Below, piece by piece: positions 6,694 through 7,715 of a DNA stretch of 24,000 bases. How positions within the stretch are numbered: the first letter of the stretch is position 1; every line of letters begins with the position of its first letter. The notes beneath the pieces are model-generated. The model searched no databases and was not told the DNA's origin. It saw nothing but the letters and a program-made list of their open reading frames with translations. The translations under genes and the position numbers were made by a program. The stretch is from Acidaminobacter sp. JC074 (GTDB lineage: Bacteria; Bacillota; Clostridia; Peptostreptococcales; Acidaminobacteraceae). Location of the stretch: assembly GCF_022496765.1 (NCBI RefSeq), contig NZ_VANV01000003.1:1-24000 (forward strand). The letters are read 5' to 3'.

Positions 6694-6737
6694 ACATTTA
6701 GAAGAAAGGTGGCATTATGTTAACTACTAAATCTTGT

Positions 6738-6771
6738 TGAGACGTTGATGTAAAAGCATCGAGTTTCGATG
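6738..6771 (+). other. In-frame UGA (6738-6740) plus downstream hairpin: candidate selenocysteine recoding site (SECIS-like), or a nonsense lesion
   Basis: The ATG at 6717 has RBS AAAGGTGG and reads MLTTKSC-TGA. The same frame then runs with no further stop into the ATG at 6783. Hairpin CATCGA-GTT-TCGATG spans 6757-6771 and its loop starts 22 nt after the UGA. Confidence 0.3.
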
Positions 6772-6782
6772 AAAGAAATATA

Positions 6783-7715
6783 ATGTTTGAAGTTTCCATG
6801 TTAAAGCATGAGGACATTTCAAATGATAAAGTCATCCATGCTTTGGATGGAAATAGACTTAAAAGACAACTTACTTTAAAAGATCACTTAGGTAGCTTAG
6901 GTGCAAGGATTGGTTTTAGAGATGATTATATGATCAAACCTGGTCTTTACCAGATCGGTCATCCAGATCCCTCGTCAGATGTTTTGGTTACTTGCAACTA
7001 TAAATTGACCATCGATCTTTTAAGAAAACATTTGAAGAAAGACTACCATATACTCGTTCTTGATACAGATGGTATCAATGTTTGGTGTGCTGCAGGAAAA
7101 GGTAAGTTTGGTACGGCAGAGCTTATATATGCCTTGAATAACTATGGACTTGAAAAGGTCGTCAATCATAAAAAGTTGATTTTGCCTCAGCTTGGCGCGC
7201 CAGGTATGCAAAAACATTTGATTCAAAAGGTAACAGGCTATCAGATTCTCTATGGACCTGTCCGTATCAGTGATATGGATTTCTACACAGAAACTTATCA
7301 AAAGACGGAAAAAATGAAAAGGATAGATTTTGATATAAAAGACAGATTGGTTTTAACACCGCTGGAGTTTATCAAGGGTTTAAAAGTGATTATTCTTGTT
7401 ATACTTTTAAGCTTAACACCCATTATAAATCTAGAACATATCTTGATGACTCTTGTGAGTTTGACTCTTGGAACCATTGTTTTTCCGGCCTTACTGCCAA
7501 TAAGACCTATGAAGATGTTCTACTTAAATGGCATTCTTTTAAGCCTTGTATGTAACTTTGTATTCTTATATCAAAACATGTCTGTCTTTAATCTAGGCTG
7601 GTATCTTTTAATGGCACTTTATACGTCTTACTTGTGTATGAATTTTACAGGATCTACGACTTTTACATCTTTATCGGGGGTAGAAAAGGAAATGGACTCA
7701 GGGTTAAAGTTTTAA
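6783..7715 (+). CDS. hgcA: Mercury methylation corrinoid protein HgcA (uninterrupted ORF; inferred ancestral gene is 6717-7768)
   Basis: PGLYQIGHP, VLVTCNYKLTIDLLR, LVLDTDGINVWCAAGKGKFGTAELI (diagnostic N[VI]WCA[AG]GK cap helix), LPQLGAPG and YGPVRISD. These are followed by four TM helices and NFTGSTTFTSLSGVEKEM. The fifth TM helix is encoded in the -1 frame at 7709-7768. Confidence 0.85.
   Translation: MFEVSMLKHEDISNDKVIHALDGNRLKRQLTLKDHLGSLGARIGFRDDYMIKPGLYQIGHPDPSSDVLVTCNYKLTIDLLRKHLKKDYHILVLDTDGINVWCAAGKGKFGTAELIYALNNYGLEKVVNHKKLILPQLGAPGMQKHLIQKVTGYQILYGPVRISDMDFYTETYQKTEKMKRIDFDIKDRLVLTPLEFIKGLKVIILVILLSLTPIINLEHILMTLVSLTLGTIVFPALLPIRPMKMFYLNGILLSLVCNFVFLYQNMSVFNLGWYLLMALYTSYLCMNFTGSTTFTSLSGVEKEMDSGLKF

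Follow-up and report, generated by a model that had tools for sequence, protein, structure and literature searches.

The enzyme that makes methylmercury is HgcA, and the locus examined here raises the question where hgcA of Acidaminobacter sp. JC074 (Clostridia, Peptostreptococcales) begins and whether a UGA codon near its 5' end is a stop or a codon for selenocysteine (Sec). In the 24,000-nt stretch of DNA that was analysed, called the window throughout, ATG 6783 opens an ORF of 310 codons (6783-7715) that is 100% identical to the NCBI entry 'mercury methylation corrinoid protein HgcA [Acidaminobacter sp. JC074]'. The NCBI protein starts still later, at MLKHED (ATG 6798), and has 305 aa. Comparison with related loci makes it very probable that hgcA truly starts 22 codons upstream of ATG 6783 and that the in-frame UGA, which stands beside a Cys codon, encodes Sec.

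The start region of hgcA

The elements of the start region are as follows.

6665-6693, plus strand: promoter-like sequence TTGAAA-17 nt-TATAAT for hgcAB (11 of 12 consensus matches; a consensus match only)
6705-6712, plus strand: Shine-Dalgarno (SD) sequence AAAGGTGG serving ATG 6717, with comparable SD sequences in relatives
6717-6719, plus strand: ATG, the probable true start codon of hgcA; 17 loci share the N-terminal pattern M-x(5-11)-C-U
6735-6740, plus strand: CU motif, consisting of Cys codon TGT (6735-6737) and the predicted Sec codon TGA (6738-6740); TGY-TGA is invariant in 17 loci
6757-6771, plus strand: candidate bacterial SECIS (bSECIS) apical hairpin CAUCGA-GUU-UCGAUG, which overlaps the codons for A-S-S-F-D and shows covariation

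Reading from 6717 yields the codons ATG TTA ACT ACT AAA TCT TGT TGA. Following the TGA, 14 sense codons (DVDVKASSFDERNI; GAC GTT GAT GTA AAA GCA TCG AGT TTC GAT GAA AGA AAT ATA) continue in the same frame up to ATG 6783. The first-pass annotation of this DNA had described an SD at 6705-6712 serving ATG 6717, a TGT-TGA pair in that frame, a run of 22 codons into ATG 6783 interrupted by no other stop, the lack of an SD in front of ATG 6783, and a hairpin at 6757-6771 whose loop starts 22 nt after the UGA. All of these coordinates and observations were confirmed, and an SD-like element is likewise missing in front of ATG 6798, the NCBI start. The -10 box of the putative hgcAB promoter is located at 6688-6693, and a TATAAT is visible at a similar distance in two relatives (L099 and L114). 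Since this strong sigma-70-like promoter-like site lies just upstream of the ribosome binding site, AUG 6717 is probably the first AUG of the mRNA.

The window has a G+C content of 36%, and the probability of 14 codons without a stop is 0.35. Perfect 6-bp hairpins with loops of 3-5 nt occur 39 times in the window as compared to 28 +/- 6 times in shuffled sequences. As nothing in the window alone exceeds chance, the significance of the arrangement comes only from relatives.

Conservation of the Cys-UGA pair and the hairpin

As relatives we used 17 hgcA loci (16 distinct), the proteins of which are 45-72% identical to that of the window. They were obtained from the DNA of database homologues and from a metagenome scan with a codon-level pattern, in which 10 of 48 matches were real hgcA N-termini; the rest, about three quarters, were chance matches without HgcA and were dropped. 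Database homologues were found that begin with MDVKASRFD... or MKASSFD..., or that contain ...KHCWDVNDKASSYD..., which corresponds to the peptide following the TGA of the window.

Each of the 17 loci carries an upstream ATG, followed by 5-11 codons and then by TGT/TGC-TGA. Wherever upstream sequence could be read, this ATG is preceded at a distance of 5-9 nt by a comparable SD, and no SD is found in front of the position equivalent to MFEV. The peptide leading in frame from the TGA into HgcA conforms to D-[VIM]-[DN]-[VD]-K-[AS]-S-[SR]-[FYS]-D-x3-[IL]-[ML]-x-E-V, and coding conservation is present on both sides of the in-frame UGA in the 17 loci. It had been suggested as a check to see whether orthologues start at the Met equivalent to 6783 with no coding potential upstream. 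Instead, the relatives share the upstream ATG, the Cys-TGA and the conserved coding peptide, and several of them have Leu or another residue at the 6783-equivalent position (ILLEV, ILFAL, LLTEV, ILSEI), so that initiation there is no general rule. Start, Cys-TGA and hairpin of JC074 are identical or near-identical to those of three relatives (L129, L099 and L114).

The hairpin was analysed in a 60-nt alignment beginning at the TGA, in which it occupies columns 19-25 paired with columns 29-35. It is kept in the loci of all 17 relatives, with 92.9% of cells paired. Four pairs are essentially invariant, of which three never vary and one shows a single A-U to G-U change. The pair 6761/6767 (columns 24-30), which connects the third position of a Ser codon with the third position of a Phe/Tyr/Ser codon, is AU in 11 cases, GC in 3, CG in 1 and UA in 1, and is never unpaired; the three GC cases represent the clade of the window. 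A second varying pair (columns 19-35) is found as GC, GU and UA. The covariation score of the hairpin is 0.218 compared to 0.086 +/- 0.022 in column shuffles, none of 500 reaching 0.218, a result that reflects one or two covarying pairs among related sequences, with the G-C state perhaps going back to a single event. The score collapses once the partners are slid against each other, and RNAalifold independently picks the same helix. The hairpin is thus conserved, compensatory changes included, in relatives that carry the TGA, which was a further point raised by the first-pass annotation.

Codon usage within the element points in the same direction. The Asp codon 11, located in the 3' arm of the stem, is GAT in 16 of 16 cases, whereas the Asp codon that directly follows the TGA is split between GAC (8) and GAT (8); the Ala codon in the stem is GCA in 14 of 15 cases and Val codons vary freely. 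This pattern at synonymous sites is the one expected where an RNA constraint is superimposed on protein coding.

The rules for bSECIS elements call for a loop of the form N1-G-[G/U]-N-N2, an upper stem of 5-7 bp and a spacing of 16-37 nt between UGA and loop. The criteria applied here were a loop of 3-9 nt, a stem of 4-16 bp, a G in the first two loop positions, a distance of 16-37 nt from the UGA and an MFE <= -7.5 kcal/mol. The hairpin of the window agrees with the rules, having the loop GUU (or A-G-U-U-U), a 6-bp stem and a 22-nt spacing. Its energy is weak when folded alone (-5.8 kcal/mol) and reaches -11.3 kcal/mol with the hairpin enforced in a 55-nt element; 15 of the 17 relatives lie within the energy limit. 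Searches of Rfam, where bacterial SECIS elements are poorly covered, returned no SECIS model or credible family at gathering or permissive thresholds. Two other structures were considered and rejected. The thermodynamic optimum of 6738-6790 is a hairpin that contains the UGA (6738-6768, -12.2 kcal/mol), but its covariation does not exceed that of shuffles, and in divergent relatives its pairing is disrupted. A long lower stem (columns 4-14 with 41-50) is 71% paired and shows no compensatory change.

State of hgcAB and alternative readings of the UGA

In a MAFFT alignment of HgcA N-termini, the U of the window falls into the column of the second Cys of proteins beginning M-x-x-E-K-S-C-C... and also aligns with the U of PCUGP/SCUP proteins. 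Further Cys forms at this column are present among the protein matches. The homologue alignment proposed earlier thus placed Cys at the UGA column in many homologues, with further homologues having U there. Of 80 HgcA loci sampled from species-representative genomes, 37 have CC or CCC motifs at the N-terminus, and N-terminal CU was scored in 4 by a strict script and in 7 by eye. Two further Clostridial HgcA subfamilies possess a Cys-TGA of their own, with a different stem sequence and the same GUU loop; in one of them (L138) the hairpin reads CUUCUA-GUU-UAGAAG. A 49-column N-terminal profile found no match in the protein database, a search that is uninformative. Genes selA, selB and selD and a tRNA-Sec are not present within the 24-kb window, in which ARAGORN detected no tRNA at all. 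A literature search for the strain or genus combined with selenocysteine, glycine reductase or hgcA returned nothing useful.

The identity of the gene and its 3' end were assessed with the following two coding regions.

6717-7768, plus strand: hgcA coding region in its proposed selenoprotein form; carries a 1-nt deletion near 7701-7703, and the uncorrected frame stops at 7713-7715
7765-8045, plus strand: hgcB; carries a 1-nt deletion at 7930-7931, in a Cys codon of the second CxxCxxCxxxCP motif

The HgcA profile NCBIfam NF040863 (curated equivalog cut-off 275 bits) scored 317.2 bits with the sequence as assembled and 324.2 bits with the repaired one. The HgcA cap helix is recognised by N(V/I)WCA(A/G)GK with a strictly conserved Cys; the window protein carries it as GINVWCAAGKG (Cys codon 7086-7088), and the motif is invariant in the HgcA alignment. 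In tblastn, hgcA changes from frame 3 to frame 2. The deletion site is near the GGG at 7701-7703, and repairing it restores the usual ATGA overlap with hgcB and lets the match to NF040863 end at profile position 322 of 325 instead of 305. Owing to this deletion, which replaces the last ~22 residues, the true C-terminus of HgcA (to TGA 7766-7768) is in another frame. The earlier proposal to translate 6717-7768 as one frame accordingly stands with respect to the start and fails with respect to an uninterrupted frame: the span is not a multiple of three, and the frame ends with TAA at 7713-7715. In hgcB, the deletion at 7930-7931 leaves the C-terminal ...KDCC out of frame; the repaired HgcB matches positions 2-93 of 93 of NF040864 with 103 bits (cut-off 99). 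In this assembly an intact C-terminal transmembrane domain of HgcA and an intact adjacent hgcB are therefore both missing, possibly through assembly errors. With a 1-nt deletion in each gene, hgcAB may be non-functional and decaying, or mis-sequenced.

These deletions bear on the possibility that hgcA of JC074 is a relic, i.e. that it descends from a Sec-type gene but is decaying, or resides in a strain unable to decode Sec, so that translation ends at UGA 6738 and yields no functional HgcA. In its favour are the two 1-nt deletions, which are independent and fall within some 230 nt of hgcAB, and the finding that all syntenic neighbours are intact, with lengths as in the relative L132. However, start, Cys-TGA and hairpin are intact despite both frameshifts and, as described above, match those of relatives. 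Moreover, the frameshifts could be assembly errors, one of them adjoining a G run, and NCBI still calls HgcA a protein. We regard a relic as unlikely, albeit as the most serious of the alternatives.

Far less credible is that the present annotation is right and UGA 6738 is merely the stop of a leader peptide or upstream ORF with 7 codons, HgcA being made from ATG 6783 or ATG 6798. The NCBI start at MLKHED agrees with it. So does the lack of coverage of the extension by the NF040863 profile, but as this profile matches the extended protein from residue 48 onwards, it is silent on this part. An upstream ORF of 7 codons is made very unlikely by an amino-acid sequence that, in 17 loci, is conserved both across the TGA and beyond it; to this are added the relatives without Met at the 6783-equivalent, the missing SD before either downstream ATG, and the homologues having Cys in place of the TGA. 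A recent nonsense mutation of TGT/TGC to TGA is excluded by the conserved TGA among relatives. We give marginally less credence still to a read-through of the UGA other than as Sec, be it as Trp or Gly through an alternative code or as near-cognate Cys or Trp stimulated by the hairpin. Public gene callers do give W for the equivalent TGA in three homologues (P0012, P0042 and P0092); in P0012, this 'W' is a TGA translated under code 4. However, the column is occupied by Cys in homologues and never by a TGG-encoded Trp, and the hairpin fits the rules for SelB-type bSECIS elements. Furthermore, the 19 other genes of the window end with TAA (12), TAG (6) or TGA (1), use TGG for Trp and contain no in-frame TGA, and codes 4 and 25 are excluded by this stop-codon usage and the lack of in-frame TGA. 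The single TGA terminates an ArsR/HTH_20-type gene (18242-18823), as had been pointed out in support of TGA being an ordinary stop here.

Proposed Sec decoding and comparison with known systems

In our preferred reading, hgcA of Acidaminobacter sp. JC074 is in all likelihood a selenoprotein form of HgcA; the earlier idea of a Cys-Sec HgcA with a SECIS-like hairpin is well supported by the comparison with relatives. Transcription would begin shortly after the -10 box (6688-6693), and ribosomes would bind the SD at 6705-6712 and initiate at AUG 6717. UGA 6738, representing codon 8, would then be decoded as Sec by SelB-GTP-Sec-tRNA(Sec); the in-frame SECIS hairpin at 6757-6771, which is small (apical A-GUU-U) and lies 22 nt downstream, would recruit SelB. 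The predicted product is M-L-T-T-K-S-C-U-D-V-D-V-K-A-S-S-F-D, followed by the corrinoid domain. Sec insertion in HgcA of JC074 is what we infer from these sequence features. Following a proposal by Haft & Gwadz, the Cys-Sec pair may act as a thiolate/selenolate ligand of Hg(II) or as a redox pair, working together with the cap-helix Cys and the C-terminal CC of HgcB. With no SD in front of the Met codons further downstream, the amount of HgcA made should depend on Sec decoding; otherwise ribosomes would release a 7-residue peptide and produce little HgcA. A more far-reaching view is that HgcA synthesis, and hence methylmercury formation, is controlled wholly by the supply of selenium and by decoding through SelB, and that the conserved peptide K-A-S-S-F-D is set chiefly by the needs of the SECIS RNA and not by those of the protein. 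We consider this view possible but rather doubtful.

A Cys-Sec pair at the N-terminus of HgcA bears on the capture of Hg(II) and on selenium-mercury interactions in anaerobes. In practical terms, start and Sec annotation of hgcA in JC074 need correcting, the public 305-aa protein lacking its N-terminal 27 residues and with them the CU motif, and many metagenomic HgcA calls are truncated in the same way or carry a spurious Trp at the UGA. The central idea of a CU selenoprotein HgcA is not new, as it was published in 2022-2023. The first-pass annotation knew of no described case, but according to Haft & Gwadz (bioRxiv 10.1101/2022.07.06.499078; J Bacteriol 2023) the majority of HgcA proteins are selenoproteins whose CU motif lies in an N-terminal extension that previous annotation had overlooked, and selenoproteins also account for about 6% of HgcB (bioRxiv 10.1101/2022.07.06.499078). 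A 2026 review (PMC13188914) likewise tabulates HgcA (NF040863, motif CU) among the known prokaryotic selenoproteins. What is new here is the Clostridia-type CU context with a compact SECIS showing covariation at synonymous sites, which could aid selenoprotein-aware annotation of hgcA in environmental surveys; the record of two frameshifts in hgcAB of JC074 is of residual value.

Known bSECIS elements (the bSECISearch model, E. coli fdhF, the Moorella SelB-SECIS) resemble the hairpin of the window in being stem-loops that closely follow the UGA on its 3' side and are themselves part of the coding region. In contrast to these, the hairpin of the window, a predicted binding site of SelB, is very small and has neither a conserved lower stem nor an Rfam family. 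CU selenoproteins of organometal and mercury systems, namely SaoL, SaoB, SaoC and some MerT, share with the window HgcA a Cys-Sec pair presumed to bind a soft metal; their folds are unrelated to HgcA and the likeness rests on the literature only. Closer to it are the Cys-type KSCC/CCC HgcAs, for example those of Desulfitobacteriia and other Bacillota (L016, L018, L025, L053, L057, P0059, P0062 and P0068), which also have M-x3-5-K-S-C-C near the N-terminus. They differ, however, by having TGY instead of TGA, need no SECIS and often contain extra Cys ('packing'), and their downstream peptide is unrelated to the DVDVKASSFD of the window.

The closest counterparts are the PCUGP-type HgcA selenoproteins, which belong to the same family and also carry Cys-Sec in an N-terminal extension that precedes the start given in former annotations. 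In both types the protein is truncated in databases because the UGA is read as a stop. However, the context is K-S-C-U-D-V-D-V-K-A-S-S-F-D in the window HgcA as opposed to P-C-U-G-P, and the SECIS is a different small hairpin. Moreover, Sec is residue 8 and the extension comprises only 22 residues, whereas extended proteins of the Desulfovibrio/Geobacter type have 363-400 aa. In the published alignment (Fig. S7; bioRxiv 10.1101/2022.07.06.499078), Sec rows are exclusively of the (P)CUGP type and Firmicute-like rows have CC or CCC. Since this alignment shows only PCUGP-type Sec, the KSCUDV...KASSFD context with its SECIS would represent a further member or sub-type of the Sec forms of HgcA rather than a new kind.

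Frameshifts in hgcA and hgcB

Annotated HgcA ends early, at TAA 7713-7715, because the frame of hgcA is lost near GGG 7701-7703 (window 7695-7768). The -1 frame carries the homologous HgcA C-terminus (VKVLIRGSLLALLMMVIGVMV) together with the usual ATGA overlap with hgcB. In the second ferredoxin motif encoded by the latter gene (7765-8045), ...CIECGACQMN|(C)PTKALSV..., the Cys codon lacks 1 nt (window 7925-7935). This deletion splits hgcB, so that residues 1-55 of HgcB are read in frame 1 and residues 57-93, which end in KDCC, in frame 3. The repaired HgcB matches the NCBIfam model NF040864 end to end. 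The presence of two frameshifts in hgcAB and of none in the adjoining genes points to local decay or an assembly error at this site.

Neighbourhood of hgcAB

The synteny around hgcAB (window 4355-6623 and 8026-17422) is kept in relatives, as exemplified by loci L132 and L133, and comprises the following features:

Within 4355-6623, upstream of hgcAB: ABC ATPase and ABC_export (PF16962) permease
Within 8026-17422, downstream: convergent LigT-like 2',3'-cyclic phosphodiesterase (8026-8562, minus strand); argG/argH
Within 8026-17422, also downstream: Asp/Glu racemase; M48 peptidase; two chromate-transporter halves

In comparison to L132, the window additionally contains a methyl-accepting chemotaxis gene (12281-14353) and an ORF of 157 aa (14557-15030). 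The 3' end of hgcB and the convergent LigT-like gene overlap by 20 nt, and L132 has the same overlap. In the window, both coding regions contain an 11-bp palindrome (8003-8028) that was flagged as a terminator-like sequence.

Folding around the UGA and related Cys-TGA motifs

The thermodynamically best fold in window 6738-6768 is a 13-bp hairpin of which the UGA is itself a part (-12.2 kcal/mol, z = -3.3). This hairpin and the SECIS hairpin at 6757-6771 compete for the CAUCGA segment, and the former might have a role such as masking the UGA or the SECIS. Across relatives the 13-bp hairpin is 88% paired, and no covariation was seen in it among them. Further Clostridial HgcA subfamilies possess an N-terminal Cys-TGA of their own (L138, 1001-1100; L139, 960-1040), in the contexts NNTCU-IIEKPKTSSLEE and KQSCU-VVEEKTSSLEG. 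Here, the hairpin 3' of the Cys-TGA differs from that of the window in its stem sequence, but has the identical A-GUU-U apex, e.g. CUUCUA-GUU-UAGAAG.

Public HgcA calls and motif frequencies

Public gene calls render the Sec-UGA of hgcA as Trp ('CW') in L001 (protein P0012), L138 (P0042) and P0092, apparently because genetic code 4 was used for the contig. Elsewhere, the public call places the start codon shortly after the TGA, at a GTG or an ATG (MDVKAS..., MKASSFD...). Both the Trp readings and the post-TGA starts are systematic artefacts of metagenomic HgcA catalogues. In a non-random sample of 80 GTDB HgcA loci (L004-L083), the N-terminus bears a CC or CCC motif in 37 loci, which makes this by far the commoner type than CU, present in 4-7; about 30 loci have neither. 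This differs from the published picture, in which selenoproteins are the majority of HgcA (Haft & Gwadz, bioRxiv 2022; J Bacteriol 2023), a discrepancy for which sampling and clade mix probably account.
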